Virus record (IMG/VR): IMGVR_UViG_2617271072_000006
Span: 1 to 44,740 of that record
Strand: one strand, 5' to 3'
DNA length: 44,740 nucleotides
Origin: a virus
Lineage: Duplodnaviria; Heunggongvirae; Uroviricota; Caudoviricetes
Shown here: positions 1 through 29,302 of the stretch, piece after piece
Position numbering within the stretch: position 1 is the first letter of the stretch
Layout: each line of letters begins with the position of its first letter
Notes under the pieces: model-generated
The model's database searches: none
Seen by the model: the letters and a program-made list of their open reading frames with translations, nothing else
Told to the model about the DNA's origin: nothing
Made by a program: the position numbers and the translations under genes

Positions 1-1284
1 TTACTTCTTCGCCTCTGCAACCACTTTACTACCCACGCCGCGGTTATTGTATTCCCACATGCGGTTGTAGTTAGTGTCATTCAGATTGCGCTGTATTTCG
101 TCGTTATCATCTACGCTGCCGGTATTACCCGCAAACGGACGATTAGAGATCACCGCATCGGCCCACGGTTTAGCCGTGTTAAAACCTTCGTTGATGGCGC
201 TATCACGGATCACCACCTGACCGTTGGTATTGGCATCAACATCCAGCGAGCGGCCCAGTTGCGCCACACCATCACCGAAAGCATTGAAACGGCTGTTTAC
301 GGCGAGGAAACCGTAGTAAATGTTGGACAGCGTAGCCGGTGCAAACACATACGCTTCTTGCTGAGTACGTGAGTTCACCACGCGGAATTCGGTGTTATCG
401 AACACCACTGCGCCGCGACCAGAAACGATATCCACATCCCCTTCAATGTAGCTGTTGGTCACCAGCGTACGCGGCTGACGGTTGGTTTCCAGACGGTTCT
501 GCACACCGCTGTTGGTGACAAAGAAGGTGTTCTGACGACCGAGAATGTTAACGTTGTTAATCTGTACCTGGTCACCATCAGTACGCAGTGCCACCGCCGG
601 ATGGTTACCTGCATCTACGCTATCGCCCAGCGTGTTTTCGATGGTCAGATTTTGCAGTTGCAGGCCATTGTTTTGTGACCAGAAGACCGCAGAGCAGAGA
701 ACACCGATACTGTCGCTGCGTTTGCTCTGGCAGCTATCGTACATATACCACGCTGGTTTACCTGGCATATATTTGCCGCGCGGGTTGACGTCGTGACGCC
801 AGTCGGCAGGGCTCATGCCACCATCAAGGGAAAGCCCAATCTTCACATCAATCGGTTTTTCACCTGTACCGTACAGAGTAATTCCACCCGGAGCGGCAGG
901 GACATATACCGTTCCCTGATACTCACCAGGCATCACGGCAATATACTGGCGCTTGTTGGTACGCTTGATAATTGCCGCATCTACCGCCGCCTGAATCGTG
1001 GTATGCGTTACACCTTGAGTGCCCGCCGGGCCGACAACAAAGTCAGGTTGCGCAGGCAGGGTAATCGGGGAAGGATTCCACGCTGCAGCACCTGGTGTCA
1101 GGGATGCAAAATAGTGTTGAGCATCGAAATTCTGCGCTTCTTTTGCCGACAGAATCGGGCGAGAAGAGGTACCAGGCGCGGTTTGATCAGAAGGACGTTG
1201 ATCGGGCGGGGTTGAGCTACAGGCGGTCAGCGTCACGCCAAAAGCCAATGCCAGCGCCAGACGGGAAACTGAAAATGTGTTCAC
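1..1284 (-). CDS. ybhC: YbhC-like pectinesterase-family outer-membrane lipoprotein (host gene flanking lambda attB)
   Basis: Complete 427-aa ORF (stop at window pos 1-3); N-terminal lipoprotein signal with LTAC lipobox; recognised as the E. coli gene immediately left of the lambda attachment site. Confidence 0.85.
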   Translation of the reverse strand: MNTFSVSRLALALAFGVTLTACSSTPPDQRPSDQTAPGTSSRPILSAKEAQNFDAQHYFASLTPGAAAWNPSPITLPAQPDFVVGPAGTQGVTHTTIQAAVDAAIIKRTNKRQYIAVMPGEYQGTVYVPAAPGGITLYGTGEKPIDVKIGLSLDGGMSPADWRHDVNPRGKYMPGKPAWYMYDSCQSKRSDSIGVLCSAVFWSQNNGLQLQNLTIENTLGDSVDAGNHPAVALRTDGDQVQINNVNILGRQNTFFVTNSGVQNRLETNRQPRTLVTNSYIEGDVDIVSGRGAVVFDNTEFRVVNSRTQQEAYVFAPATLSNIYYGFLAVNSRFNAFGDGVAQLGRSLDVDANTNGQVVIRDSAINEGFNTAKPWADAVISNRPFAGNTGSVDDNDEIQRNLNDTNYNRMWEYNNRGVGSKVVAEAKK

Positions 1285-1330
1285 AGGTTGCTCCGGGCTA
1301 TGAAATAGAAAAATGAATCCGTTGAAGCCT

Positions 1331-1345
1331 GCTTTTTTATACTAA
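1331..1345 (+). other. lambda-type attL: 15-bp common core GCTTTTTTATACTAA joining host arm to phage P' arm
   Basis: Exact core sequence; right flank (to ~1420) matches the lambda P' arm as recalled and runs straight into int. Confidence 0.9.
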
Positions 1346-1418
1346 GTTGGCATTATAAAAAAGCATTGCTTATCAATTTGTTGCAACGAACAGGTCACTA
1401 TCAGTCAAAATAAAATCA

Positions 1419-2489
1419 TTATTTGATTTCAATTTTGTCCCACTCCCTGCCTCTGTCATCACGATACTGTGATGCCATGGTGTCCGACTTATGCCCGAGA
1501 AGATGTTGAGCAAACTTATCGCTTATCTGCTTCTCATAGAGTCTTGCAGACAAACTGCGCAACTCGTGAAAGGTAGGCGGATCCCCTTCGAAGGAAAGAC
1601 CTGATGCTTTTCGTGCGCGCATAAAATACCTTGATACTGTGCCGGATGAAAGCGGTTCGCGACGAGTAGATGCAATTATGGTTTCTCCGCCAAGAATCTC
1701 TTTGCATTTATCAAGTGTTTCCTTCATTGATATTCCGAGAGCATCAACATGCAATACTGTTGGGATGGCAATTTTTACGCCTGTTTTGCTTTGCTCGACA
1801 TAAAGATATCCATCTACGATATCAGACCACTTCATTTCGCATAAATCACCAACTCGTTGCCCGGTAACAACAGCCAGTTCCATTGCAAGTCTGAGCCAAC
1901 ATGGTGATGATTCTGCTGCTTGATAAATTTTCAGGTATTCGTCAGCCGTAAGTCTTGATCTCCTTACCTCTGATTTTGCTGCGCGAGTGGCAGCGACAGG
2001 GTTTGTTGTTATATGGCCTTCAGCTATTGCCTCTCGGAATGCATCGCTCAGTGTTGATCTGATTAACTTGGCTGACGCCGCCTTGCCCTCGTCTATGTAT
2101 CCATTGAGCATTGCCGCAATTTCTTTTGTGGTGATGTCTTCAAGTGGAGCATCAGGCAGACCCCTCCTTATTGCTTTAATTTTGCTCATGTAATTTATGA
2201 GTGTCTTCTGCTTGATTCCTCTGCTGGCCAGGATTTTTTCGTAGCGATCAAGCCATGAATGTAACGTAACGGAATTATCACTGTTGATTCTCGCTGTCAG
2301 AGGCTTGTGTTTGTGTCCTGAAAATAACTCAATGTTGGCCTGTATAGCTTCAGTGATTGCGATTCGCCTGTCTCTGCCTAATCCAAACTCTTTACCCGTC
2401 CTTGGGTCCCTGTAGCAGTAATATCCATTGTTTCTTATATAAAGGTTAGGGGGTAAATCCCGGCGCTCATGACTTCGCCTTCTTCCCAT
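1419..2489 (-). CDS. int: Integrase, tyrosine recombinase (lambda Int)
   Basis: 356-aa ORF whose translation matches lambda Int as recalled (MGRRRSHERRDLPPNLYIRNNGYY...); adjacent to attL. Confidence 0.97.
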   Translation of the reverse strand: MGRRRSHERRDLPPNLYIRNNGYYCYRDPRTGKEFGLGRDRRIAITEAIQANIELFSGHKHKPLTARINSDNSVTLHSWLDRYEKILASRGIKQKTLINYMSKIKAIRRGLPDAPLEDITTKEIAAMLNGYIDEGKAASAKLIRSTLSDAFREAIAEGHITTNPVAATRAAKSEVRRSRLTADEYLKIYQAAESSPCWLRLAMELAVVTGQRVGDLCEMKWSDIVDGYLYVEQSKTGVKIAIPTVLHVDALGISMKETLDKCKEILGGETIIASTRREPLSSGTVSRYFMRARKASGLSFEGDPPTFHELRSLSARLYEKQISDKFAQHLLGHKSDTMASQYRDDRGREWDKIEIK

Positions 2490-2685
2490 TTCTGATCCTC
2501 TTCAAAAGGCTACCTGTTACTGGTCGATTTAAGTCAACCTTTACCGCTGATTCGTGGAACAGATACTCTCTTCCATCCTTAACCGGAGGAGGGAATATCC
2601 TGCACTCGCGTACCCATCGACGAACTGTTTCAAGGCTTCTTGGGCGTCGCTGGCGTGCGTTCCACTCCTGAAGTGTCAAGTACAT
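2467..2685 (-). CDS. xis: Excisionase (lambda Xis)
   Basis: 72-aa ORF MYLTLQEWNARQRRPRSLETVRRWVRE..., overlapping int start as in lambda. Confidence 0.95.
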   Translation of the reverse strand: MYLTLQEWNARQRRPRSLETVRRWVRECRIFPPPVKDGREYLFHESAVKVDLNRPVTGSLLKRIRNGKKAKS

Positions 2686-2712
2686 CGCAAAGTCTCCGCA
2701 ATTACACGCAAG

Positions 2713-2732
2713 AAAAAACCGCCATCAGGCGG
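2713..2732 (-). terminator. Rho-independent terminator candidate at 3' end of the small ORF
   Basis: Minus strand reads GCCGCC-TGAT-GGCGG followed by TTTTTT; hairpin overlaps the stop codon. Confidence 0.45.
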
Positions 2733-2892
2733 CTTGGTGTTCTTTCAGTTCTTCAATTCGAATATTGGTTACGTCTGCATGTGCTATCTGCGCCCATATC
2801 ATCCAGTGGTTATAACAGTCGTTGATGTTCTCTGCTTCGATAACCCTGTTGAATGGCTCTCCATTCCATTCACCTGTGACTCGGAAGTGCAT
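2725..2892 (-). CDS. Small hypothetical protein (55 aa) downstream of xis, lambda orf55-like
   Basis: ATG at 2892, TGA at 2725-2727; translation MHFRVTGEWNGEPFNRVIEAENINDCYNHWMIWAQIAHADVTNIRIEELKEHQAA; below the 60-aa cutoff of the ORF track. Confidence 0.55.
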   Translation of the reverse strand: MHFRVTGEWNGEPFNRVIEAENINDCYNHWMIWAQIAHADVTNIRIEELKEHQAA

Positions 2893-2975
2893 TTATCATC
2901 TCCATAAAACAAAACTCGCCGTAGCGAGTTCAGATATAATTTCCACCAAAGGCAGTAGTTGCTTGATGCTAAGAA

Positions 2976-3404
2976 TTATTCAATATCTATTCCTGTAATA
3001 TCTTTTATCTTTTTCCTTGCAAAGCCTTTTGCTAGTGATTTTGAAACACTCATAAGTGTACTAATTCCCTCATCCTTAAAGTTTGTTTTTATAGCTTGCC
3101 AGACATCCTTTTGACGTAAGTCAGCAATAAAATCATGCCCTCTTGCTGTCAACCTCAGTGGTACTTCGATCCAACTATATCCAACACCTTCCCCTAACGC
3201 TTTGGACAATATATGACCGAACCCAGGTTTTCCATCAACCCTGACTATTAATTCGTAGTCACATAATAATCGCATATGGAAAATAAAATCTTGGTCATAT
3301 CTATTAAAGCCATTATCCTCTAGTTCACTAAGCATCGTGTCAGGGCCACGAGTTTTTTCGAATGCGATAAGTAGATCTTTTAGATATTGCTGGTCTAATT
3401 TCAT
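2976..3404 (-). CDS. Hypothetical protein, possibly DUF2513-like winged-helix protein
   Basis: 142-aa ORF with GGAGG Shine-Dalgarno 5 nt upstream of ATG 3404; family assignment is a weak recollection only. Confidence 0.5.
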   Translation of the reverse strand: MKLDQQYLKDLLIAFEKTRGPDTMLSELEDNGFNRYDQDFIFHMRLLCDYELIVRVDGKPGFGHILSKALGEGVGYSWIEVPLRLTARGHDFIADLRQKDVWQAIKTNFKDEGISTLMSVSKSLAKGFARKKIKDITGIDIE

Positions 3405-3432
3405 TGCCGCCTCCGTGACATGTCACAGAGAT

Positions 3433-3771
3433 TTATATCATTAATTTTGTTTCGTGCCAGCCTTTGGTCACCCAGCATTGTGAGTCACCATTACACGGGC
3501 ATGAATTAACAGGAACTCTCTCGCCGCACTTACCGCACCGTTTTCTGCTGATCGATTTTATACGCCAGCGCACACGTGCATCATCCTGGCGGCTCAGTAA
3601 CGCGATGTACTCACCAAACTCGCAAGGCGCACGCCTGAAGCGACGCGTGGCACAGTTACGCTCCAGCATTTCAATTTCCTGAGCATCAAGTACAAGCTCC
3701 AGCTTACGCATACCGGATGATGCTTGCTTGGCTCTCTGATCGGCTTTGTGCTCTGTTGCTGATTTAGCCAT
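3433..3771 (-). CDS. Hypothetical protein with C-terminal Cys-rich zinc-finger-like motif
   Basis: 112-aa ORF; CGKCGERVPVNSCPCNGDSQC cluster; AGGAAAAG upstream of ATG 3771; occupies the lambda ea8.5 position. Confidence 0.5.
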   Translation of the reverse strand: MAKSATEHKADQRAKQASSGMRKLELVLDAQEIEMLERNCATRRFRRAPCEFGEYIALLSRQDDARVRWRIKSISRKRCGKCGERVPVNSCPCNGDSQCWVTKGWHETKLMI

Positions 3772-3964
3772 TCTGCTTTTCCTGCATCAGGAGAAAGACA
3801 ATCATGGCGGCGCGGATACTTCCGGTATCTTTTTACGCGATATTCCCCTTCAATGGCACATACAAGAAGAGAGCCATCAACAGGAGTGATTGAGGAATCG
3901 ACAACCAGCAACGCTTAATTATCTATAGTGTCGTATTTGCTTCATAAAATATGGCGAATAACAC

Positions 3965-3996
3965 AAAGCCCGCAGCAGCTCATTGTGCGGGCTTTT
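3965..3996 (+). terminator. Stem-loop with T-rich tail (terminator candidate) in intergenic region
   Basis: AGCCCGCA ... TGCGGGCT stem, 11-nt loop, followed by TTTTCTTAT on the plus strand. Confidence 0.35.
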
Positions 3997-4064
3997 CTTA
4001 TACCTACTTCCTAGAGATAATTCTATGGAGGCATTAAATCAATACTGTCATTGGTAATATCATA

Positions 4065-4678
4065 TTATCTAAAAGTCTTTCCACTTTTAACATCTAGGTA
4101 TATTCTGTTCGACAACGTCATTCCTCCGCAATATGTGAAATAGATGTTTTCACCCTTATTGCTTGATGCCATCCACCCTCCGATTTCCTTAAAATCGCTT
4201 TCCGTGCAGACCCCTTCATTTATTAACTTCCTAGCTGCCGAAGAAAACTCTTTTTTGTATATACGGTAGTCATCAGATCCTTTGATTAAAGTATCATCTC
4301 CGCTCGCATTTTCAGCAGGATCTGATGGCCTTTCACTGCTAAGATCACTAAGTTTAACCCATTCTGAAAACTTGCCATTAACGATTCCATTTTTTCTTGT
4401 GCAGGATTTATTACCTTCTTTAATATATTCGCTTTCCCCTCCAACACATGAGGCTGAATATGGCTCAGTTATACGAACCCATTCACCTTTTTTTCTAGAA
4501 AATCTACGCCTTCCCTGAAAAATAGTTTCCCAGCCACTCCACATTTACTTGAAGGGCAGGTATGTCTTTCCGTTCGATCAACAACAACCCATAGTTTTGA
4601 TTCATTTTTTGCCATTGCCGATGGTATTTGAGATGAGACAATTAACGTAAGCCCTAAAATTAGTATTGATTTTTTCAT
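4065..4678 (-). CDS. Secreted protein with Sec signal peptide and possible SH3b-like region; frameshifted as assembled
   Basis: ORFs 4469-4678 (signal peptide MKKSILILGLTLIVSSQIPSAMA) and 4065-4544 join into one ~205-aa protein if the T7 run at 4488-4494 were T8. Confidence 0.5.
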
Positions 4679-4976
4679 TGTAATTTCCTTTTACTTTTTA
4701 CAAAGCGTTTAATCATGGCTGATTATCTCTAAGTGTAGTAACAGCCTTGTGCGAAACATGTTACCAAATCGCCATTTCAGTGTATCCGCAGTTAGGCTGC
4801 CACTTCAAGGATTCCTAATTACATGGTACGTAAGCGTAAAATCCCGTTGGTTGGCGGGTAATAACTCTGATCAAATCTCCCTTGTCTTTTGCTCTTACGT
4901 ATGCAGCTCTTGTGTATTCAACCCAGGCCTCCAGTTCAGCAATACGCTTACTTCCATCCGAGATAACACCTTCTAC

Positions 4977-5201
4977 TCACGCTGCTCGTTGAGTTTTGAT
5001 TTTTGCTGTCTCCAGCTCAACACGCAGTTTCCCCACCGTTAGCGCAATATCCTCGTTCTCCTGGTCGCGGCGTTTGATGTATTGCTGGTTTCTTTCCCGT
5101 TCATCCAGCAGTGTCAGCACAATCGATGGTGTTACCAGCTCATGGAAAAAGGTCCGCGTCAAATCCCCAGTTGTCAGGCATTGCCTGCTCTGCCGCTTCA
5201 C
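4977..5201 (-). CDS. Hypothetical coiled-coil-like ORF; doubtful as a stand-alone gene
   Basis: 74-aa ORF with GTG start and no clear RBS; same frame continues with protein-like sequence for 53 codons after an in-frame TGA at 4977-4979. Confidence 0.3.
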   Translation of the reverse strand: MKRQSRQCLTTGDLTRTFFHELVTPSIVLTLLDERERNQQYIKRRDQENEDIALTVGKLRVELETAKIKTQRAA

Positions 5202-5225
5202 GCAGTGCCTGAGAGTGAATTACGC

Positions 5226-5447
5226 TCACTTCGAACCTCTCTGTTTACTGATAAGCTCCAGATCTTCCTGGCAACTTGCACAAGTCCGACAACCCTGAAC
5301 GGCCAGGCGTCTTAGCTCATCTATGGGATCGCCACACTCACAACAATGAGTGGCAGATACAGCCTGGTGGTTCAGGCGGCGCATTTTTATTGCTGTGTTG
5401 CGCTGTAATTCTTCAATTTCTGATGCTGAATCAATGATGTCTGCCAT
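5226..5447 (-). CDS. TraR/DksA-family C4 zinc-finger protein (lambda orf73-like)
   Basis: 73-aa ORF with CCECGDPI...CRTCASCQ four-Cys motif typical of TraR/DksA C-terminal zinc fingers. Confidence 0.7.
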   Translation of the reverse strand: MADIIDSASEIEELQRNTAIKMRRLNHQAVSATHCCECGDPIDELRRLAVQGCRTCASCQEDLELISKQRGSK

Positions 5448-5838
5448 CTTCCATTAATCCCTGAATTGTTGGTTAATACGCTTGGGGGTAAATGCGAGCA
5501 ATAAAAAAGGAGCCTGTAGCTCCCTGATAATTTTGCTTTTCATGTTCATCGTTCCTTAAAGACGCCGTTTAACATGCCGATTGCCAGGCTTAAATGAGTC
5601 GGTGTGAATCCCATCAGCGTTACCGTTTCGCGGTGCTTCTTCAGTACGCTACGGCAAATGTCATCGACGTTTTTATCCGGAAACTGCTGTCTGGCTTTTT
5701 TGATTTCAGAATTAGCCTGACGGGCAATGCTGCGAAGGGCGTTTTTCTTGCTGAGGTGTCATTGAACAAGCCCCATGTCGGCAAGCATAAGCACACAGAA
5801 TATGAAGCCCGCTGCCAGAAAAATGCATTCAGTGGTTG

Positions 5839-6030
5839 TCATACCTGGTCTCTCTCATCTGCTTCTGCTTTCGCCACCATCATTTCCAGCTTTTGTGAAA
5901 GGGATGCGGCTAACGTATGAAATTCTTCGTCTGTTTCTACTGGTATTGGCACAAACCTGACTCCAATTTGAGCGAGGCTATGTGCCATCTCGATACACGT
6001 TCTTAACTCAACAGGAGATGCTTTGTGCAT
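5839..6030 (-). CDS. Hypothetical protein, lambda orf63-like
   Basis: 63-aa [26 protein letters not shown]... in the position and overlap pattern of lambda orf63 upstream of exo. Confidence 0.75.
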   Translation of the reverse strand: MHKASPVELRTCIEMAHSLAQIGVRFVPIPVETDEEFHTLAASLSQKLEMMVAKAEADERDQV

Positions 6031-6191
6031 ACAGCCCCCCGTTTATTATTTATCTCCTCAGCCAGCCGCTGTGCTTTCAGGGGATTTCTGATAACAGAAA
6101 GGCCGGGAAATACCCAGCCTCGCTTTGTAACGGAGTAGACGAAAGTGATCGCACCTACCCGGATATTATCGTGAGGATGCTTCATCGCCAT
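6003..6191 (-). CDS. Hypothetical protein, lambda orf60a-like
   Basis: 62-aa [29 protein letters not shown]..., overlapping exo start as in lambda. Confidence 0.75.
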
Positions 6192-6862
6192 TGCTCCCCA
6201 AATACAAAACCAATTTCAGCCAGTGCCTCGTCCATTTTTTCGATGAACTCCGGCACCATCTCGTCAAAACTCGCCATGTACTTTTCATCCCGCTCAACCA
6301 CGACATAATGCAGGCCTTCACGCTTCATACGCGGGTCATAGTTGGCAAAGTACCAGGCATCTTTTCGCGTCACCCACATGCTGTACTGCACCTGGGCCAT
6401 GTAAGCCGACTTTATGGCCTCGAAACCACCGAGCCGGAACTTCATGAAATCCCGGGAGGTAAACGGGCATTTCAGCTCAAGGCCATTGCCGTCACTGCAT
6501 AAACCATCGGGAGAGCAGGCGGTGCGCATACTTTCGTCGCGATAGATGATCGGGGATTCAGTAACATTCACGCCGGAAGTGAATTCAAACAGAGTTCTGG
6601 CGTCGTTCTCGTACTGTTTTCCCCATGCCAGCGCCTTAGCATTAACTTCCGGAGCCACACCGGTGCAAACCTCAGCCAGCAGGGTGTGGAAGTAGGACAT
6701 TTTCATGTCAGGCCACTTTTTTCCGGAGCGGGGTTTTGCTATCACATTGTGAACTTCTGAAGCGGTGATGACGCCGAGCCGTAATTTGTGCCACGCATCA
6801 TCCCCCTGTTCGACAGCTCTCACGTCGATTCCGGTACGCTGCAGGATAATGTCCGGTGTCAT
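6182..6862 (-). CDS. exo: Exonuclease (Red alpha)
   Basis: 226-aa ORF matching lambda Exo as recalled ([37 protein letters not shown]...). Confidence 0.97.
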
Positions 6863-8432: not shown

Positions 8433-8496
8433 GCTGCGGATCTAAGCGGTCATCGCAACGGTGAAGTTATAAATTTTTGTGATACCAACATCGATG

Positions 8497-8545
8497 CAAT
8501 AGCATGACAATAGCAATAGCTATTGGTGTAGTCAATAGCAATTAG
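8497..8545. promoter_or_regulatory. Cluster of CAATAGC / GCTATTG repeats including 12-bp palindrome CAATAGCTATTG: candidate left operator (OL) and pL region
   Basis: At least four copies of CAATAGC within 50 bp upstream of the early-left operon; the same TGCTATTG motif recurs between the repressor and cro-like genes. Confidence 0.4.
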
Positions 8546-8785
8546 TATTGATAATGTTTGATATACTTGTTCTGATTGATAATTAAATGAATTTTTATAA
8601 AAAAGAGTATGAAGACTTATTGGTGTGGCTGAAATTTGTACAGCTTTAATGTGCCTCGTGACAGAGGGGCATCGGGTTGTGGTGAGCTCGGTAGGTTGGC
8701 AGCAAATTTAATCGAATATTGGTAGTCTGAGTTCTTATGTGTATTTTTTTAGTCAGTTGCTAAATGATACATAAATGACTTATTA

Positions 8786-8810
8786 GCCCCGCCATCGCTT
8801 TGTACGGGGC
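8786..8810. terminator. Stem-loop immediately downstream of the SIR2-like gene stop
   Basis: GCCCCGCC ... ACGGGGC hairpin; T-rich tail only on the plus strand, so strand of action is uncertain. Confidence 0.35.
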
Positions 8811-8816
8811 GTTTAT

Positions 8817-10419
8817 TTAATTTATCTTTTCAACATTTCCATGAATCAACAAGTCGTAGGCAAGAAATAGTTTCCTATACTGGGTTTTTAAATTGTCAAC
8901 GTCGCATGCCTTGAATTGAACAAACGCTTCTTTTTTAACATAATCTTCAATCTCCTCTTTGGGGATATTTTTTATGTTCTTAATGACTATAGACAATTCT
9001 TTGTACTTTTTGAACTTTGCATCCTTTATATCTTTGATGTTGGTGTAAATTTTATTTGCATTGATTTTATCTAAGGTGATTTTATTGAGCAAGTCGTCTA
9101 GTTTTCCGTGGCGTTCAATGCGTTGATTTAGTTTTAACACATATTTAGCTGGCAAACTTAACTCTTTCAAATTACATGAGGTTATAGTTTTTGAAAATGG
9201 AAGTTGTAATGAGTTTACTGAACCTAATATGAAATCTATGGCTAATTTATTAGATATTTCATTTTTATTAAATAAGTAGTCTTCAAGATAATTTATTTCT
9301 TTAACTTGTGTGAATACATACTTTTTATCGCCTAGAGCAACAACTAAATTTTTTCCTTGTTTAACACTTTCTTCAAGTCTGTCTAAGTCAGAAGGTGAAA
9401 CCAATAGAGTATCTAAGTGCCCTTTTTCACCCTCATTAATGATAAGTGTTTTAATGGCTCTTTGATACCTTAAAACATCATAAGGTGAGAGCCCTTCATC
9501 AACAGCACTGATCTCATCATAGATCTGTTTATAGTTATCTGTTTTAACAGATGTATATGTAATTTGTAGCTGTTGATCGGTAATCTGTTTTGGTACTACT
9601 TCCTGTTCATTCTCTTTATATTCAATCAAAATTATTCTTTCAGCTGATTTTCGACCATCTTCTCTAGGTAGTTGTGAGGAAAAATCAGAAAGAAGTTTCT
9701 TTACATTCCTGTCAGTTAAAGAATATCCAAGAAAAACTATTGGATTTTTAATCATGTTAGATAGTATCTTGGCACTAATGAGTATAGATTTGTTGTCATA
9801 TTTTTCGTAATCATCTTTATTTATGATTATTGAGTGTGGATCCTTTATATCACCATGTATTTTGTATAACTCACTCCAGCCAATAGTATCTTCGAAAAAA
9901 CCATTATTTCCAATATAGAGTTTTGGAGTTATATTTTGCTCTTGAAGTAAATTTTCTATGAAAGCATCATAATTTGTAGTGATGATTATCTTGGCCTTTT
10001 TTATTAATGTTTTAAATGATGCTAATTCATCAAGATTTACATCCTTTCTGATTGTGTTATTAGAAAATCTTTGGCATATGGCGTATTTAAATGGTGAAAT
10101 ATCTTCACTAAAAACCCTCTTGGCATCTAGTCCATTTAATTTTAATTTGCCAGTCCTAAACAATAGATTGTAATCATTTTCAATTTTACTTGCTGCCTCT
10201 GTATAAATCTTATGATCGATATCATTATCACTGTTATTTTTATGTGATTCTTTTATTGTTAAAAGATAACTATAGAAATCATTTGTGGGATTTGTTATTT
10301 TCCAATACTCGTTTAATAGCTCTTCCCACGTTGGGTAGTTCTCTAAATATATTTTTGAAATGCCTGAGCCAATAAAGACTATTGGGTAATTTTTGAATTC
10401 AAAATTTTTTTTTTGACAT
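8817..10419 (-). CDS. SIR2-like (SIR2_2/ThsA-type NADase domain) protein with uncharacterised C-terminal region; N-terminus frameshifted as assembled
   Basis: ORF 8817-10163 carries IIITTNYD, YKIHG and VFLGYSLTD motifs; the same frame upstream encodes the FIGSGIS glycine loop but has no start codon; ATG at 10419 with RBS is out of frame by one base across a T10 run (10405-10414). Confidence 0.7.
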
Positions 10420-10531
10420 ATCCATATACCTTAAGCTCTGCTTGAAACATCCATTCTATAAATTATGAGGATGTCAGCATGTCTCACCAAAACATCATCT
10501 GGTTATCTTGATGAAATCTGTCATTAATAAT

Positions 10532-11223
10532 CTACCCATGTTTTCTATATGTCTGTGGCATGCTCCCAATAACTTTCCCAAATATAAATACCCGATTCAT
10601 TTCGTCTTTTTCGATCGGGTCCCACGGTGAGTAGCTCTTGTTATCAGAGATAACCAGCAGCTTATCCTTCATCATTTGCAGGCGCTTTACATGGGCTGTG
10701 TCGTCGTACAGAAACGCATAGATACCATCACCGTCGAAAGATTTAACAGTGATATCAACGAACAGAAGATCACCTGGTTCGATCGTTCCTGACATGCTGT
10801 CACCGCGTACGTTAATGATGCGGATATTTTCTGCCTTCCTGCCATCGAACATGTGACGAGCATCGTCAAACGAGTACTCAACCGAGCGTAGGACTTCTAC
10901 AAACTCACGGTTGATGACACCCGGCCCAGCACTGACTTCTATATCAAGAACGTCAATTTTGAAGTATTTGGAATGGTTGACAGCAGGCTTCCCTGATTGT
11001 TGACCGTCATTTCTCATCGGGCCTATGCCTGATGAGAGCCACTCTGTTCGAACACCCAATGCATTAGCTATTTCAACAATTTTGTTGAGCCGCGTGCGTT
11101 GCCGCTTGTCAGTCTCCAGATTGTGGGTTGAGCTACGCCAGACGCCTTTGCAAGAGCGCCTTGAGACATTCCAGATTGTTCCATCGCTAGGTTTAAGCGA
11201 TCAGCAAGAGTTTCTTTTTTCAT
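10532..11223 (-). CDS. cI-like prophage repressor (N-terminal HTH + C-terminal S24 LexA-type peptidase domain); frameshifted as assembled
   Basis: HTH ORF 11068-11259 (QGALAKASGVAQPTIWRL) and peptidase ORF 10532-11059 (GDSMSGTIEPGDLLFVD...VKRL...K) join if the T4 run at 11080-11083 were T5; likely ATG at 11223. Confidence 0.8.
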
Positions 11224-11235
11224 AAGTTTTAATTT

Positions 11236-11300
11236 ATACGCTTGCGTATTGATGGTCAAAACACGTTTTGCTATTGATTGGATTAATACGCATTGCTATT
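11236..11300. promoter_or_regulatory. Right operator/promoter region between repressor and cro-like gene
   Basis: Perfect palindrome ATACGCTTGCGTAT (11236-11249), imperfect copy (11285-11300) and TGCTATTG motifs; TATAAA -10-like element 8 nt upstream of the repressor ATG, consistent with a leaderless pRM-like transcript. Confidence 0.5.
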
Positions 11301-20676: not shown

Positions 20677-21027
20677 TTATTTATTGAAGATCTGAAATAG
20701 AAGGCTACATATCGTAGCAATATTTGCCCCATAAGATAGGTATTTTGTAAACCCTATTCCATCAAATACAGTTAGCTGCTCTTGTTCAGTAGTAGCTTTG
20801 CTACTTACCAGCTCTTCATATGCCTGCTTTAGTTGTTCCAGAGGCGTTTCAGCTCTAATTCCTGCTGCATGAAGAGCCTGGATATTATCTTTATAGTTGA
20901 CTCCGTGTCCTTCATTTTCAGAGATATCAGTACCTATTATGACTAAATCTAAAGGATTACCGGCCTCGACTCTAATGCCATCACCGCCATTACCTTTAAT
21001 ACGGCCACCAATTAATGTTAATGTCAT
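20677..21027 (-). CDS. Hypothetical protein (AT-rich moron between lysis and packaging modules)
   Basis: 116-aa ORF with good RBS (AGGAAA, 8-nt spacer), own AT-rich upstream region, opposite strand to flanking late genes; possible beta-helix-like repeats (GGDGIRVEAG...IIGTDISENEG). Confidence 0.5.
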   Translation of the reverse strand: MTLTLIGGRIKGNGGDGIRVEAGNPLDLVIIGTDISENEGHGVNYKDNIQALHAAGIRAETPLEQLKQAYEELVSSKATTEQEQLTVFDGIGFTKYLSYGANIATICSLLFQIFNK

Positions 21028-21285
21028 TAATACTTTCCTTTATCAGATGAAAAATAAATTCTATTTTACATCACTAGCCACGTAAAAATATAAAGAATAT
21101 TTCCAGAATTGTTGTGGCTCACATTTTCTATAACTAAATACTATATCGCTGTCGTCTTTGAGTAAATGCTACTTAATCTGTCTACAAGCATTTTTATAGT
21201 CATCACAATGGGCGGATCCATCGTAATGGCTTAACATGAGCACTACTATGCTCCCTGCAAAAAACACATAACAGAAGGGCGGACA

Positions 21286-21636
21286 ATGCCACCACGCACA
21301 CCAAAGGCTTGCAGAGCAAGAGGCTGCCGCAACACGACAACCGATTCATCAGGCTACTGCGAGCTACACAAAAGCGAAGGCTGGAAGCAATACAAGCCAG
21401 GTCAGTCCCGTCATCAGCGCGGTTATGGTTCGAAGTGGGATGTTATCCGCGTGCGTGTGCTGAAGCGTGACAAAGGCCTGTGTCAGTTATGTCTGCGTGC
21501 TGGTGTGGTGCGTGAGGCGAAAACCGTTGACCACATCATCGCTAAAGCGCATGGCGGCACTGATGCCGACTGCAATCTGCAGAGTTTGTGCTGGCCGTGT
21601 CATAAGGCGAAGACGGCCCGTGAACGGCTGAAGTAA
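21286..21636 (+). CDS. HNH endonuclease (packaging-associated)
   Basis: 116-aa ORF with Cys/His-rich HNH motifs (CQLCLRAG...VDHIIAKAHGGTDADCNLQSLCWPCHKAK), directly upstream of the terminase genes. Confidence 0.85.
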   Translation: MPPRTPKACRARGCRNTTTDSSGYCELHKSEGWKQYKPGQSRHQRGYGSKWDVIRVRVLKRDKGLCQLCLRAGVVREAKTVDHIIAKAHGGTDADCNLQSLCWPCHKAKTARERLK

Positions 21637-21662
21637 GAACCAGTTCCCACTGCCAGAGGGGA

Positions 21663-21723
21663 GGGGCGGGTCAAATCCCTGTGACCTGACGTCTTCCGGA
21701 CTGCCCGCCCCATCCGTTTTTTT
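21663..21723 (+). terminator. Large GC-rich inverted repeat followed by T7 tract between HNH and terS (terminator or cos-proximal structure)
   Basis: GGGGCGGG (21663-21670) pairs with CCCGCCCC (21704-21711); TTTTTTT at 21717-21723. Confidence 0.4.
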
Positions 21724-21762
21724 ATACCCGCGAAAAATGAAATTTAACCAGGAGTGCCACAT

Positions 21763-22257
21763 ATGGCTGGAACGGCGGGGCGTTCCGGGCGTCGCCCCAA
21801 GCCAACGGCGCGCAAGGCGCTGGCCGGAAACCCCGGCAAGCGAGCCCTGAACAAAGATGAACCTGTTTTTACGCCCATCAAAGGTGTTGAGCCACCGGAG
21901 TGGTTCGCTGAAGAAGATCTCCCTCTCGCCACGATCATGTGGCAACTGACAACCAAAGAACTCTGCGGTCAGGGCCTGCTGTGCGTGACTGACTTGGCGG
22001 TACTTGAGCGGTGGTGCGTGGCCTACGAGTTCTGGCGACGTGCCGTGAAAAATATTGCCAGACAGGGCAACACCATCACCGGTGCAATGGGTGGCATGGT
22101 CAAAAATCCGGAGCTGACCGCCAAGAAAGAACAGGAGTCCGAGATGAGCAGCACGGGGGCAATGCTCGGACTCGACCCCAGCAGCCGCCAGCGTCTGATT
22201 GGCCTGGCGGGGCAGAAGAAAGCCACTAACCCGTTTCTGAAAATCATCGAATCATGA
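21763..22257 (+). CDS. Terminase small subunit
   Basis: ORF 21754-22257 (likely ATG 21763 after AGGAG), positioned between HNH and the large terminase subunit with ATGA overlap. Confidence 0.8.
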
Positions 22258-23986
22258 GCCGGAAATCTTACCCCAACGTAAATGCTGCCAATCAGTATGC
22301 CCGTGATGTCGTGCGCGGAAAGATTGTGGCCTGCCAGTTTGTGATTCAGGCCTGCCAGCGCCATCTTGATGACCTGATGGTGGAAAAAGTAAGTCGTTTC
22401 GTTACCGCTTCGACAAGGACCTGGCTGAACGGGCCGCGAAATTTATTCAGCTGTTGCCACACACCAAGGGGGAGTGGGCATTCAAGAGGATGCCCATCAC
22501 GCTGGAACCGTGGCAGCTCTTTGTGATCTGCTGTGCGTTTGGCTGGGTCAATAAAGGCTCCCGGCTGCGCCGCTTCAGGGAGGTGTATACCGAAATCCCC
22601 CGTAAGAACGGCAAATCGGCAATCTCTGCCGGTGTTGCCCTGTATTGTTTTGCCTGTGATAACGAGTTTGGCGCGGAAGTGTATTCCGGTGCCACGACAG
22701 AGAAACAGGCGTGGGAAGTCTTTCGCCCGGCGCGACTGATGTGTAAACGCACACCCATGCTGACGGAAGCGTTCGGGATTGAGGTTAACGCCTCAAACAT
22801 GAACCGTCCGGAGGATGGCGCGCGGTTTGAACCGCTGATCGGTAACCCCGGTGATGGTTCATCACCCCACTGTGCCGTGGTGGATGAATATCACGAGCAC
22901 GCCACCGATGCGCTTTATACCACGATGCTTACCGGGATGGGCGCGCGACGTCAGCCACTGATGTGGGCCATCACCACCGCCGGGTACAACATTGAGGGGC
23001 CGTGCTACGACAAGCGGCGGGAAGTTATCGAGATGCTCAACGGTTCGGTACCCAACGATGAACTGTTCGGGATCATCTATACCGTTGACGAAGGCGATGA
23101 CTGGACCGACCCGCAGGTGCTGGAAAAAGCTAACCCGAATATTGGCGTGTCGGTTTATCGCGAATTTTTGTTAAGTCAGCAGCAGCGTGCGAAAAATAAC
23201 GCCCGTCTGGCAAACGTCTTTAAAACAAAACACCTCAATATCTGGGTGTCGGCGCGTTCGGCGTATTTCAACCTGGTGAGCTGGCAGAGCTGCGAGGATA
23301 AATCACTGACCCTTGAGCAGTTCGAGGGGCAACCGTGCATTCTGGCCTTTGACCTGGCGCGTAAGCTGGATATGAACAGCATGGCGCGACTTTATACCCG
23401 CGAGATTGACGGTAAAACGCATTACTACAGTGTGGCTCCGCGCTTCTGGGTACCGTATGACACGGTGTACAGCGTCGAGAAAAATGAAGATCGCCGGACA
23501 GCCGAACGCTTTCAGAAATGGGTGGAAATGGGCGTTCTGACCGTTACCGATGGTGCGGAGGTGGATTATCGCTACATCCTCGAGGAGGCCAAAGCGGCGA
23601 ACAAAATCAGCCCGGTCAGTGAGTCACCCATCGACCCCTTCGGGGCGACCGGGTTGTCACATGACCTTGCTGATGAAGACCTGAATCCCGTCACTATCAT
23701 TCAGAACTACACCAACATGTCCGACCCGATGAAAGAGCTGGAAGCGGCAATTGAATCGGGGCGCTTTCATCATGATGGCAATCCCATCATGACCTGGTGT
23801 ATCGGCAATGTGGTCGGCAAAACCATTCCGGGTAACGATGATGTGGTGAAACCCGTCAAAGAGCAGGCGGAAAACAAAATTGACGGTGCAGTTGCGCTGA
23901 TTATGGCGGTTGGCAGAGCCATGCTGTATGAGAAAGAAGACACGCTGTCTGACCACATTGAGTCCTATGGGATCCGCTCGCTTTAA
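22254..23986 (+). CDS. Terminase large subunit; frameshifted as assembled
   Basis: N-terminal ORF 22254-22526 and main ORF 22454-23986 join in frame if one base is restored near 22397-22401; reading of the junction ([19 protein letters not shown]) is my reconstruction. Confidence 0.85.
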
Positions 23987-23997
23987 CTGAGGTAATT

Positions 23998-24180
23998 ATG
24001 ATCATGCTGATTCTCGCGCCTCTGGTGGGCGTGCTGGGGGCGCTTTTGCTGGCGTATGGTGCCTGGCTGATTTATCCCCCGGCGGGGTTTGTTGTTGCCG
24101 GGGCGTTGTGCCTGTTCTGGTCGTGGCTGGTGGCGCGATATCTCGACCGTACACAGTCGTCTGTCGGCGGAGGTAAATAG
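23998..24180 (+). CDS. Small hydrophobic membrane protein
   Basis: 60-aa ORF, two predicted transmembrane helices, between terminase and portal. Confidence 0.5.
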
Positions 24181-25421
24181 TGTTCTTTTCGGGATTATTT
24201 CAACGAAAAAGTGACGCACCGGTGACCACGCCAGCAGAGCTGGCGGATGCTATCGGGTTGTCCTACGACACCTATACCGGAAAGCAGATCAGCAGCCAGC
24301 GGGCCATGCGACTGACGGCGGTTTTTTCCTGCGTCAGGGTGCTGGCAGAGTCGGTCGGGATGTTGCCCTGCAATCTGTATCACCTGAACGGCAGCCTGAA
24401 ACAGAGAGCCACCGGCGAGCGTCTGCATAAGCTGATCTCCACGCATCCCAATGGCTATATGACGCCGCAGGAGTTCTGGGAGCTGGTGGTCACCTGTCTG
24501 TGCCTGCGGGGAAACTTTTACGCCTACAAAGTGAAAGCATTTGGCGAAGTGGCTGAACTGCTGCCCGTCGATCCCGGCTGTGTGGTACCGAAGCTTAACA
24601 GTAGCTGGGAGCCGGTCTATCAGGTCACATTCCCGGACGGCTCCACGGATGTACTGAGCCAGGAAGATATCTGGCATGTGCGCACGCTGACGCTGGACGG
24701 TCTGGTGGGGCTGAATCCCATCGCCTATGCCCGCGAGGCAATATCGCTGGCAGCTGCGACCGAAGAGCACGGGGCCAGACTGTTCAGCAATGGTGCGGTG
24801 ACGTCCGGTGTGTTGCGTACAGAGCAGACGCTGTCGGATCAGGCTTATGAGCGCCTGAAGAAAGATTTTGAGGAGCGTCACACCGGGCTTGGCAATGCTC
24901 ACCGCCCGATGATCCTTGAGATGGGGCTGGACTGGAAGTCGATGGCGCTGAACGCCGAGGACAGCCAGTTCCTGGAAACCCGCAAGTTTCAGCTTGAAGA
25001 AATCTGTCGTCTGTTCCGGGTGCCGTTGCACATGGTGCAGAACACCGATCGCGCCACCTTCAACAATATCGAAGAGCTGGGGCTGGGATTTATCAACTAT
25101 TCACTGGTGCCGTATCTGACCCGCATCGAACAGCGGATCAACACCGGACTGGTACGAAAAAGTAAGCAGGGCGTTTATTACGCCAAATTTAACGCCGGGG
25201 CGTTACTGCGCGGGGATATGAAGTCCCGTTTTGAAGCCTACGCCACCGGGATCAACTGGGGAATTTACTCTCCCAATGACTGCCGCGACCTGGAAGATAT
25301 GAATCCGCGTCCCGGTGGTGATGTCTATCTCACACCGATGAACATGACCACGAAACCCTCCGATGGCAGTAAAGCCGGTAAGCAGAAGGATAACGCCAAT
25401 GCAGACGAAACAACGTCTTGA
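24180..25421 (+). CDS. Portal protein (HK97 family)
   Basis: 413-aa ORF, GTG start with GGAGG RBS; size and position (after terminase, before prohead protease) typical of HK97-type portals. Confidence 0.8.
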   Translation: MFFSGLFQRKSDAPVTTPAELADAIGLSYDTYTGKQISSQRAMRLTAVFSCVRVLAESVGMLPCNLYHLNGSLKQRATGERLHKLISTHPNGYMTPQEFWELVVTCLCLRGNFYAYKVKAFGEVAELLPVDPGCVVPKLNSSWEPVYQVTFPDGSTDVLSQEDIWHVRTLTLDGLVGLNPIAYAREAISLAAATEEHGARLFSNGAVTSGVLRTEQTLSDQAYERLKKDFEERHTGLGNAHRPMILEMGLDWKSMALNAEDSQFLETRKFQLEEICRLFRVPLHMVQNTDRATFNNIEELGLGFINYSLVPYLTRIEQRINTGLVRKSKQGVYYAKFNAGALLRGDMKSRFEAYATGINWGIYSPNDCRDLEDMNPRPGGDVYLTPMNMTTKPSDGSKAGKQKDNANADETTS

Positions 25422-26050
25422 TGTACCGCTGAGTCTGAAATCTGTCAGTGACTCCGGTGAGTTTGAAGGGTATGGCTCCGTCTTTGGTGTAAAGGACAGC
25501 CACGATGATGTGGTGATGTCCGGGGCATTTGCTGCTTCCCTGCGGGCGTGGAGTGACAGAAAAGCGTTACCTGCGCTGCTCTGGCAGCACCGCATGGATG
25601 AACCCATCGGTGTTTACACCGAAATGAAGGAAGACGATGTCGGGCTTTACGTCAGGGGACGGTTGCTTATTGATGATGATCCCCTCGCAAAAACGCGCAC
25701 ATGCACACATGAAGGCCGGTTCGTTAACCGGCCTTTCTATTGGGTACGTCCTGAAAGACTGGGAATACGACCGGAGCAAAGAAGCCTTTCTGCTGAAAGA
25801 AATCGACCTCTGGGAAGTCAGCCTGGTGACGTTCCCGTCTAACGACGAGGCGCGGATCAGCGACGTCAAGAACGCACTGGCCCGCGGGGAAATCCCCGAA
25901 CAGAAAAAAATCGAAAGAGTCCTGCGTGATGTCGGACTCTCCCGTACCCAGGCCAAAGCATTCATGGCCGGGGGCTATGGCGCACTGTCCCTGCGCGACG
26001 CTGAGGATGTGGGCTCTGCACTGAATGCACTGAAAAATCTGAACTTCTAA
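25399..26050 (+). CDS. Prohead protease (HK97 family); frameshifted as assembled
   Basis: ORFs 25363-25842 and 25637-26050 are two frames of one protease; frames differ by one base around the C4/A5 runs at 25681-25693; start may be 25363 or ATG 25399. Confidence 0.75.
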
Positions 26051-26064
26051 TCAGGAGAAATACG

Positions 26065-27267
26065 ATGGCGGTTGATATTAAAGATGTCGAACAGGTCGCG
26101 CAGGAGCTGCAGCAGAAGTTTGACGACTTCAAAGCAAAGAACGACAAGCGCGTGGATGCGATTGAGCAGGAAAAAGGCAAGCTTGCCGGGCAGGTGGAAA
26201 CCCTGAACGGGAAACTCAGCGAGCTGGAAAATCTCAAAAGCGACCTTGAAAAAGAGCTGCTTGAGCTGAAACGTCCGGCAGGTGGAGCGCAAAATAAACT
26301 GGCCACCGAGCATAAAGAGGCGTTTGTGGGCTTCCTGCGTAAAGGCCGTGAAGACGGTCTGCGCGATCTGGAGCGTAAGGCATTGCAGGTGGGTACCGAT
26401 GAAGACGGTGCTACGCCGTGCCGGAAGAACTGGATCGCAACATTCTTAACCTGCTGAAAGATGAAGTGGTGATGCGTCAGGAACCACGGTGATCACCGTT
26501 GGCGGTTCCGACTACAAAAACTGGTGAATCTGGGCGGTACGGCTTCCGGATGGGTGGGGGAAACGGATACGCGATCCCAGACTGCCACCTCCAGACTGGA
26601 GCTGATTGAACCTCTCATGGGGGAAATCTACGGCAACCCGCAGGCTACCCAGAAAATGCTGGACGATGCCTTCTTCAACGTGGAGGCCTGGATCAACAGC
26701 GAGCTGGCAACCGAATTTGCCGAACAGGAAGAAATTGCCTTTACCTCAGGCAATGGCACCAAGAAGCCGAAAGGGTTCCTGGCGTATGAATCCACGGATG
26801 AAACCGACAAGGTCCGGGCGTTCGGCAAACTTCAGCATATTGTATCCGGCGAAGCGACCGCGGTGACCGCAGACGCCATTATCAAACTGATTTACACGCT
26901 GCGTAAGGCACACCGCACTGGCGCGAAGTTCATGATGAACAACAACAGCCTGTTTGCCATACGTCTGCTGAAAGACAGCGAGGGTAACTATCTGTGGCGT
27001 CCGGGGCTGGAGCTGGGGCAGCCGTCCTCTCTGGCGGGTTACGGTATCGCTGAAAACGAACAGATGCCGGATATCGCCGCTGATGCGAAAGCCATTGCAT
27101 TTGGTAACTTCAAACGGGGTTACACCATCGTTGACCGTATCGGCACCCGCATTCTGCGTGACCCGTACACCAATAAACCGTTTGTCGGTTTTTATACCAC
27201 CAAACGCACCGGCGGCATGCTGGTCGATTCGCAGGCCATCAAACTGCTGAAGATTGCAGTGGCGTAA
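26065..27267 (+). CDS. Major capsid protein (HK97 fold) with N-terminal coiled-coil delta domain; three frameshifts as assembled
   Basis: ORF 26065-26457 (coiled coil) and 26524-27267 (capsid body) are connected through three single-base deletions at ~26410, ~26482 and 26516-26520. Confidence 0.8.
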
Positions 27268-27315
27268 TCACTCAGGGGCGCGGAACCGCGCCCCTGTTCT
27301 GACGGGTGAAGAATC

Positions 27316-27516
27316 ATGATCCTGAAACAAGATCTGAAATGGTCACCGGACGGTATGCGTGTTGAGGTCATTCGGGCCGGTGAGTATGACGACGGGGCGC
27401 TTCCTGCCCGGGTGCAGGAGATTGCACTTCAGGCCGGGTTAGCAGAGCGCGGAACCAGTGCAAAAAGCAATAAAGCGACAAAAGAGAAAAAAGCCACGAC
27501 CAGTAAAGAGGGCTGA
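27316..27516 (+). CDS. Hypothetical head-module protein
   Basis: 66-aa ORF between capsid and connector genes. Confidence 0.4.
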   Translation: MILKQDLKWSPDGMRVEVIRAGEYDDGALPARVQEIALQAGLAERGTSAKSNKATKEKKATTSKEG

Positions 27517-27518
27517 GT

Positions 27519-27842
27519 ATGCTTCTGACAATGGAAGAGATTAAAGCCCAACTCCGGCTGGATGAGGATTTCGATGCTGATGACCGCCATCTGCAACTGC
27601 TGGCCTGTGCGGCACAAAAGCGGACAGAAACGTATCTGAACCGGAAGCTCTATGCACCGGATGAAACCATTCCGGACAGCGATCCGGACGGGCTGCACCT
27701 GCCGGATGATATTCGTCTGGGGATGCTGATGCTTATCAGCCATTTTTACGAAAACCGCTCGTCGGTTACGGAAGTGGAGAAACTCGACATGCCGCAGAGT
27801 TTTGGCTGGCTTGTCGGCCCGTACAGGTACTTTCCGCAATGA
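27519..27842 (+). CDS. Head-tail connector (gp6-like)
   Basis: 107-aa ORF in the conserved position after the capsid gene. Confidence 0.65.
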   Translation: MLLTMEEIKAQLRLDEDFDADDRHLQLLACAAQKRTETYLNRKLYAPDETIPDSDPDGLHLPDDIRLGMLMLISHFYENRSSVTEVEKLDMPQSFGWLVGPYRYFPQ

Positions 27843-28249
27843 AAATTCGTCAGGCGCAGACCAGCGCAACCTACATTCTGCCGGACCCCGGTGAACTGAA
27901 TAAACGCGTCCTGATCCGCCAGCGGGTGGATATGCCCGCGGATAACTTTGGCGTGGAGCCTCAATACCCGGTTACGTTCCGGACATGGGCGAAGGTTATC
28001 CAGACCAGTGCCACCACCTGGCAGGAAACCGCGCAGACCGGGGACGCCATCACCCATTACATCACCATTCGCTACCGCCGGGGGATCACTGCTGATTATG
28101 AGGTGGTCTGTGATGACCGTGTGTACCGGGTGAAACGTCAGCGTGATCTGAACGGGGCGCGGCGCTTTCTGCTGCTGGAGTGTACGGAACTGGGTGCCGA
28201 AGAACAAATGGGAGGACGCAGTGGATCAGACAGCATTTTTACACGTTGA
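27839..28249 (+). CDS. Head closure / head-tail adaptor protein
   Basis: 136-aa ORF, overlapping neighbours, conserved order in HK97-type head modules. Confidence 0.6.
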   Translation: MKIRQAQTSATYILPDPGELNKRVLIRQRVDMPADNFGVEPQYPVTFRTWAKVIQTSATTWQETAQTGDAITHYITIRYRRGITADYEVVCDDRVYRVKRQRDLNGARRFLLLECTELGAEEQMGGRSGSDSIFTR

Positions 28250-28745
28250 TTTCAAACAACCGGAGGAGATGGAGTTTAACCGTGCCAGGCTCCGAAGGGC
28301 ATTTGTTCAAATCGGGCGTGTCTATATGCGTGATGCCCGGCGGCTGGTGATGCGACGTGGTCGGTCTGCTCCAGGTGAAAACCCCGGCTATCAGACCGGA
28401 CGACTTGCGCGTTCTATAGGTTATTACGTCCCCCGTAAAAGCTCCCGTCGTTCTGGCCTGATGGTCAGGATTTCCCCTAACCAGAAAAACGGGCAGGGTA
28501 ACCGGCGTTTTCCTGAAGGTTCTGCGTATTATCCGGCGTTTCTGTATTACGGTGTGCGTCATGCCGCATACGGGATGAGCAAAAAGGATAAGCGCCAGAA
28601 AAAGCAGCATTCATCCCGCTGGCGGCTGGCACCACGTAATAACTTTATGGCTGATGTCATCGACCAGCGTCGTTACTGGACACAAAAGTTACTGTCCCGT
28701 GAGTTACAGCGGTCATTACGTCCTGTAAGAAGGAAAAAAACATGA
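28194..28745 (+). CDS. HK97 gp10-like neck protein
   Basis: 183-aa Arg-rich ORF following the head closure gene. Confidence 0.55.
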   Translation: MPKNKWEDAVDQTAFLHVDFKQPEEMEFNRARLRRAFVQIGRVYMRDARRLVMRRGRSAPGENPGYQTGRLARSIGYYVPRKSSRRSGLMVRISPNQKNGQGNRRFPEGSAYYPAFLYYGVRHAAYGMSKKDKRQKKQHSSRWRLAPRNNFMADVIDQRRYWTQKLLSRELQRSLRPVRRKKT

Positions 28746-29302
28746 AACTGACTCCTGTTATTGCTGCGCTGCGTGCCCGCTGTCTGTATTTTGAAAACCG
28801 GGTGGCAGGCGCGGCACAGTTCAAAAATCTGCCGGAGGTCGGAAAGCTGAGACTCCCGGCGGCATATGTTGTACCGGGTGATGATTCTCCGGGAGAAAAC
28901 AAAAGCCAGACCGACTACTGGCAGGAGCTGAAAGAGGGCTTCTCCGTGGTTGTCATACTGAGTAACGGGCGTGATGAGCGCGGTCAGTTTGCCTCGTATG
29001 ATGTGGTGGACGATGTCCGGCAAATGCTCTTTAAGGCCCTGCTGGGCTGGAACCTGGAAGCGTGCGGTAATCCGATTACCTATGACGGTGGCACGCTGCT
29101 GGATCTGAATCGTCATGAGCTGATTTATCAGTTCGATTTTTCGGTCATCAGCGAGCTGACCGAAGACGATACCCGCCAGCAGGATGATCTGAACAGTCTG
29201 GATGAACTGCGAACGCTGGCGATTGATGTTGATTATCTCGATCCCGGTAACGGGCCTGACGGCGATATCGAACATCACACCGAAATAACCCTTCCTTCCT
29301 GA
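28742..29302 (+). CDS. Tail completion / terminator-like protein
   Basis: 186-aa ORF between neck genes and tail sheath. Confidence 0.5.
   Translation: MKLTPVIAALRARCLYFENRVAGAAQFKNLPEVGKLRLPAAYVVPGDDSPGENKSQTDYWQELKEGFSVVVILSNGRDERGQFASYDVVDDVRQMLFKALLGWNLEACGNPITYDGGTLLDLNRHELIYQFDFSVISELTEDDTRQQDDLNSLDELRTLAIDVDYLDPGNGPDGDIEHHTEITLPS

Follow-up and report, generated by a model that had tools for sequence, protein, structure and literature searches.

Simple-sequence contingency loci, in which a change in repeat length switches a gene on or off, are known from Haemophilus, Neisseria and Campylobacter, and the phase-variable genes include restriction-modification and other defence genes. Homopolymers are also places where sequencing itself goes wrong, and length miscalls are typical of flow-based and of long-read-only methods. 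Slippage on runs of nine A or T has been documented in bacteria, where it can bring a disrupted gene back into frame (PMC1088944). Sliding of ribosomes on poly-A has been described in one source (PMC4363877).

In the present work, we examine a run of ten adenines at the 5' end of a SIR2-domain gene in a stretch of 44,740 nucleotides, called the window below, which is a lambdoid prophage integrated beside ybhC. The run resembles the contingency loci in that it occupies the opening codons of a defence gene that may be costly, differs in length between strains, and shifts the frame with a single base. Unlike them, it is short (nine), consists of A/T rather than G/C, belongs to a mismatch-repair-proficient species, is unimodal at the ON length, is absent in homologues and lies within the expectation from composition. 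With the genes that carry nine A or nine T (Baranov et al. 2005, PMC1088944; Shigella mxiE; Thermus dnaX) it shares the property that slippage of RNA polymerase on a run of 9-10 A would put a fraction of the mRNAs back in frame. The out-of-frame arrangement is, however, conserved in mxiE and in the IS elements, whereas the SIR2 gene has its wild type at the in-frame length and is only rarely out of frame. The third comparison is with homopolymer miscalls, which the window matches in being rich in indels and poor in substitutions, in a rate that rises steeply with run length, and in the many conserved genes that look frameshifted; it departs from them in a few indels located at runs of only one or two bases.

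We will argue that the tenth adenine is likely to be an artefact, in that the draft assembly from which the window comes would have miscounted the length of the homopolymer. The real tract is probably A9, which would encode an intact SIR2-domain protein of 533 residues.

Reading frames around the tract

Read on the minus strand, the region contains a Shine-Dalgarno-like AAGG (10432-10429), a spacer of 9 nt, an ATG (10419-10417), TCA, the A10 run (10414-10405, covering codons 2-5; T10 on the plus strand), TTT and TGA (10401-10399). As assembled, the frame of this ATG is ATG TCA AAA AAA AAA TTT TGA, that is, six sense codons, the last of which forms UUU_UGA together with the stop. The SIR2 frame is open from 10430, directly after a TAA at 10433-10431, through to its stop at 8817-8819. 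The first ATG, GTG or TTG in that frame is the TTG at 10163, which gives an ORF of 448 aa. The direct reading thus bears out what the earlier note had described, namely an ATG at 10419 preceded by a ribosome-binding site and followed after codon 2 by T10, an ATG frame ending after six codons, and a SIR2 frame open from 10430 that has none of the three start codons before 10163.

When the tract is cut to A9, the product begins with MSKKNFEFKNYPIVFIGSGIS, and this start, MSKKNFEF, agrees with all homologues. The ATG at 10417-10419, identified as the native one from the homologue N-termini and from the RefSeq CDS in an A9 genome, is in frame with the SIR2 gene only at A9 or A12. The proposal in the earlier note that a tract of 9 or 12 would give an intact protein stands for the A9 product, but the list was incomplete, because A8 joins an upstream ATG to the SIR2 frame. 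This ATG (10450-10448) comes into frame once the tract is A8, and likewise with A11; its product, MFQAELKVYGYVKKNFEF..., has 543 aa, and the same codon is the RefSeq CDS start in A8 genomes. A second ATG, in frame with the native start codon, is found two codons 5' of it (10425-10423).

Initiation at the TTG at 10163 was considered as a rescue of the A10 form, and it was rejected because the resulting 448-aa product is missing residues 1-85 and with them the invariant GSGxSKR loop. The invariant residues Y11-P12...G17-x-G19...R23 are in the missing part, and this product would be inactive.

A window-wide count gives A10 as the longest homopolymer, with a T8 next. The sense strand of the SIR2 gene is 42% A, and a first-order Markov estimate gives 0.52 expected runs of at least 9 and 0.22 of at least 10 within the gene. 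The length of the run is therefore within chance for a gene of this composition and is not statistically remarkable. For the first 30 nt the expectation of such a run is about 0.01, a value that refers to a criterion chosen post hoc.

Tract length in other genomes

The SIR2 gene is carried at an identity of at least 99% by 166 of 5,426 complete E. coli genomes, and every copy is chromosomal. The tract length is A9 in 160 of the 166, A8 in three and A10 in three, while A7, A11 and A12 occur in none of them. The lengths were read with short queries for A7, A8, A9, A10 and A11. The exact A9 query matched 156 genomes; four more missed it and matched no other length, and were therefore inferred to be A9 with a SNP in the flank.

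The larger survey consisted of exact-sequence look-ups in a collection of 15 billion proteins, with results counted as contigs, which may include clonal lineages and repeat assemblies of one isolate. For the O157-type allele, the A9 product is found on at least 1000 contigs and the A8 product on 162; A10 appears as the 534-aa product on 57 contigs and as the 448-aa product on 36, and A11 and A12 are found on one contig each. The corresponding numbers for a second allele are 137 (A9), 11 (A8), 1 (A10, 534 aa), 13 (A10, 448 aa) and 0 for both A11 and A12. Products of A6 and A7 are on no contig in this collection for either allele. Length variants thus occur naturally and in both directions, and their distribution is unimodal and steep around A9.

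The homologues begin at the same position as the A9 product, with N-termini of the form M-[S/P]-x-x-I-F-x-F-K-N-Y-P (for example MSEQIF, MPNKIF and MPEPIF), and the A9 N-terminus is collinear with all of the more than 100 homologues. The Lys-Lys pair that the run requires is present in no homologue from other genera, and the tract is absent outside the E. coli allele. From the shared start position and the missing Lys-Lys it follows that the A9 ATG is native and that only the E. coli allele has the run.

RefSeq handles the lengths in different ways. At A9 the equivalent of the ATG at 10419 is used (533 aa), and at A8 the equivalent of the upstream ATG at 10450, which adds an N-terminal extension of 10 residues (543 aa). 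In the A10 genomes of strains 155 and PG20180057, the start is a non-canonical ATA two bases upstream (10421-10419 in the window), yielding 534 aa that begin MCQKKNFEF..., whereas the A10 genome of DEC5E is annotated from the TTG with 448 aa. Identical A10 5' ends are accordingly annotated in two ways (loci L001 and L002 versus L007), and no variant is flagged as frameshifted.

Two further observations were made in these genomes. In strain 155, the gene next to the SIR2 gene, which is YdaS-like (L001, 2004-2226), has a deletion of 5 bp (TGGGC) and is flagged as frameshifted; this deletion is not in a homopolymer, and it is found in the same genome as an A10 tract. In strain PSJ-14 (NZ_AP027626.1), an IS1 insertion in the SIR2 gene leaves a 195-aa fragment (BEB26610.1), which is an independent natural inactivation.

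These variants matter for annotation. Of the complete E. coli genomes, about 3% have this prophage-borne SIR2 defence candidate, many O157:H7 among them, and its run varies naturally by one base. RefSeq gives the variants inconsistently, starting some at an ATA and others at an upstream ATG, and truncating others to 448 aa without the NAD-binding loop. Predictions of defence repertoires would be affected if the tract variants alter expression.

Probable homopolymer errors in the source assembly

The window stems from assembly GCA_000529855.1, contig CBWN010000010.1, and we compared it with near-identical relatives. Over positions 1-6500, there are no substitutions relative to L013 and L014, and three homopolymers differ in length by one base (T8 to T7 at 4488-4494, A4 to A5 at 5150, T4 to T5 at 5746). 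Over positions 21000-40751 (19.75 kb), the comparison with the 99.9%-identical prophage L006 gives 10 SNPs and 11 indel events. The indel sites are at 21714, 22383, 25689, 26409, 26483, 26515, 29510, 32852, 33061 and 33102, each of one base and once of two. Most of these indels are in homopolymer runs of at least 3 bases, and a few single-base ones are at runs of one or two bases. The dependence on run length is steep, as 5 of 19 runs of at least 6 differ from L006 (26%), against 6 of 14,564 runs of 5 or less.

The indels split the genes for the terminase large subunit, the prohead protease, the major capsid protein (three indels), the sheath and the tape measure, all of which are intact in L006. 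Around the SIR2 gene, a comparison of 7.9 kb with four relatives gives four indels specific to the window, and all four are in A runs (about 11084, 10414, 8478 and 5749, the last being the 5746 site seen from the other strand). The one near 11084 shortens A5 to A4 (11081-11084) in the gene for the cI-like XRE/S24 repressor (10532-11223, minus strand), so that the region 10532-11259 now holds ORFs of 63 and 175 aa. Every relative examined, including L003, has the identical intact repressor of 230 aa (WP_000712399.1).

Overall, the assembly differs from its near-identical relatives by about 0.5 one-base homopolymer indels per kb. A miscall at the SIR2 tract would be one of a series: further one-base indels are found elsewhere in the window, the error rises with run length, and the breaks fall in genes that are intact in relatives.

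The allele of the window points in the same direction. It has two private substitutions, R23I (codon 23, 10350-10352, minus strand; ATA for Ile in the window, AGA for Arg in all relatives) and the conservative V163I (codon 163, 9930-9932). Both appear to be real, because the same allele read with A9 is WP_438422128.1, which is found on three contigs. The A8 and A10 versions of this allele are absent from the protein collection, in which the 448-aa A10 product with the private V163I occurs only on the window's own contig, CBWN010000010.1. Arg23 is invariant in 61 diverse homologues and adjoins the GSGxS NAD loop, and R23I may weaken the enzyme.

Of the two explanations that the earlier note had offered for the tract, a sequencing error or a switch, it is thus the error that is strongly supported for the window, given the indel rate of the assembly and the occurrence of the window allele elsewhere with A9. 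Our grading of the artefact as likely is a rough weighing and our own estimate, in which the prior for a real A10 was assumed to be a few per cent and the chance of a miscall at a 9-mer at least a quarter.

Some observations go against the artefact. Tracts of A10 are present in other assemblies (three complete genomes and, in the protein collection, 57 contigs for the 534-aa form and 36 plus 13 for the 448-aa form), and a real A10 in the window is therefore possible a priori. Genuine slippage mutations likewise favour homopolymers, and R23I, at an invariant residue, would fit a gene that was already under relaxed selection.

With a miscall as the preferred explanation, the A10 frameshift and about seventeen others in the 44.7 kb are not to be taken as pseudogenes, phase variation or recoding. 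The same scepticism is due to every gene of the window that looks like a pseudogene, and to any other finding from the GCA_000529855.1 assembly that rests on a homopolymer.

Alternative explanations of the tenth adenine

We now turn to the alternative that survives best, which is that a hypermutable A9 tract has truly gained one base by slipped-strand mutation; this would leave the gene off or strongly down in the source strain, as one transient state of an on/altered/off polymorphism. In this scenario, A9 would use the native ATG, A8 the upstream ATG with the 10-residue extension, and A10 would have no canonical start. Some protein could nevertheless leak from A10 by three routes. RNA polymerase could slip on the run. 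The ribosome could shift by +1 at UUU_UGA, with tRNA-Phe re-pairing on UUU and translation continuing through GAA TTC AAA to give MSKKKFEFKNYP...; this product, MSKKKFEF..., would have the wild-type length and the substitution N5K. Finally, there could be weak initiation at the ATA. If A10 were real, it would probably act as a strongly hypomorphic allele and not as a state that was designed.

The recurrence of variants in different backgrounds, with A8 and A10 in 3/166 complete genomes each and lengths from A8 to A12 in the large collection, speaks for real slippage, as do the other natural inactivations, the IS1 insertion in PSJ-14 and R23I at an invariant residue. Many of the variant accessions belong to what we take to be short-read surveillance series of draft genomes. 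Against it stands the high prior of a miscall in this assembly, where 26% of the runs of at least 6 differ, and the finding that the window allele occurs elsewhere with A9 and nowhere else with A10. In addition, the lengths have a single peak at A9, which accounts for 96% of complete genomes, and lack the breadth seen in classic contingency loci, and the tract is absent in all homologues outside E. coli and is expected from composition. On balance we consider a real slippage mutation in the window unlikely.

A related but separate question is whether, in populations of E. coli, the A9 run acts as a mutational switch with three states, A9 being native, A8 extended and A10 off or leaky. The A8 product would then start at an upstream ATG that has no clear ribosome-binding site. 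If the switch were true, lysogens could drop or dampen a costly NAD-depleting defence and later regain it, and the switch would have left its trace in the A8 and A10 forms seen on hundreds of contigs. The run is indeed a 5' coding repeat that sets the frame (codons 2-5), and its length is polymorphic among strains. It is, however, neither longer than chance (0.52 runs expected) nor kept across homologues, none of which can encode it outside the E. coli allele. The switch suggested by the earlier note therefore keeps the variation in length among genomes on its side, and has against it the sharp A9 peak, the absence of the tract from non-E. coli homologues and a length within composition. We regard such a switch as doubtful and quite improbable, and the tract looks like an ordinary hypermutable run, without evidence of a selected switch.

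The pattern of many indels and few substitutions could also come from a mismatch-repair-deficient lineage. This is less parsimonious than error in the assembly, considering that there are 0 substitutions against 3 indels in the first comparison above and that the repressor and six structural genes are broken.

The last possibility is that A10 is a designed recoding site, which would work by programmed slippage, by shifting the frame +1 or by starting at ATA, and would set a low level of a toxic NADase. In its favour, slippage becomes efficient at the length of this run (PMC1088944), UUU_UGA comes directly after the run so that a +1 shift would re-enter the SIR2 frame, and in strains 155 and PG20180057 RefSeq starts the 534-aa protein at ATA; but RefSeq is not consistent, as the A10 genome DEC5E is given from TTG as 448 aa, the sequence has no stimulatory Shine-Dalgarno-like element of the prfB type 5' of UUU_UGA, A10 is conserved in no lineage examined, so that the out-of-frame state is not a conserved arrangement, and the homologues are without any run. 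Because the in-frame A9 form is the norm (160/166 complete genomes; at least 1000 contigs), this is not a programmed recoding site, and we consider designed recoding extremely improbable.

The SIR2 protein

Taking the tract as A9, as preferred above, the SIR2 (PDC-S25) reading frame (8817-10430, minus strand) encodes 533 aa after the loss of one A. Pfam SIR2_2 matches residues 144-283 (E 7e-24), and the PADLOC model PDC-S25, a candidate single-gene system (PDLC04967), matches residues 3-526 of 533 (E 3.6e-233). Among solved structures, the SIR2 domains of ThsA and KomC are the nearest in sequence. N149 and H188 align to N112 and H152 of ThsA, which we take to be its catalytic residues. In the homologue alignment, N149 is invariant and H188 nearly so, and G17 and G19 of the GSGxS motif are invariant as well.

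An AlphaFold model built from 61 homologues has a mean pLDDT of 81, and over its N-terminal ~300 residues Foldseek gives a probability of 1.0 to ThsA, DSR2 and KomC. For the helical C-terminal domain (~370-533), the Foldseek and structure comparison gave no clear match. The N-terminal half of the protein is thus predicted to have the ThsA/DSR2 defence NADase fold with the catalytic Asn and His, and the C-terminal half to be helical.

On the basis of the sequence matches and the model, the protein is a member of the PDC-S25 family with a predicted defence SIR2 NADase fold, from which we infer an NADase activity and a defence function. It has in common with ThsA, DSR2 and KomC the SIR2_2 domain, the aligned catalytic Asn149/His188 and the N-terminal fold. 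Unlike ThsA of the Thoeris system, it has no SLOG domain, and the locus contains no gene for a ThsB partner; compared to DSR2, it is about half as long.

The family is large, with 586 matches at E <= 1e-10, and its full-length members, from Enterobacterales and Firmicutes, are mostly 526-554 aa, with a few up to 578. A search of the phage collection with the SIR2 gene gave no match. The literature search found a single paper that mentions PDC-S25, as a PADLOC prediction for an O157:H7 strain and with no activity test reported.

Prophage setting

The SIR2 gene is located about 110 nt 3' of the cI-like XRE/S24 repressor gene, on the same strand, and is followed by kil-like, gam, bet and exo genes. 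The interval from the repressor stop (10532) to the SIR2 start has no promoter-like or terminator-like site. In the lysogen, the SIR2 gene therefore probably shares a transcript with the repressor, by analogy with rexAB in lambda. The likeness to rexAB lies in the position directly 3' of a cI-like repressor, on the same strand and with no terminator between. The differences are that the SIR2 protein has no sequence relation to RexA or RexB, and that its expression in the lysogen is predicted.

The region between the repressor and the kil-like gene (approximately 8433-10531) holds other cargo in prophages with the same integrase and flanks (L010, L012, L013 and L015). Its contents in related prophages are HipA_2 plus DUF3037, a KwaB-like protein, SieB (with N), or nothing. 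The slot at the rexAB position thus behaves as a variable cargo slot.

Finally, the distal part of the window contains a large inverted repeat (35000-39006 and 40732-44736), made up of three adjoining pairs of arms that are 97-98% complementary. It sets two modules of baseplate and tail-fibre genes tail to tail, and the window stops where the source contig of 109,154 bp stops. The repeat may stem from a second prophage related to the first, from an invertible tail-fibre region that became joined to a further copy, or from chimeric assembly.
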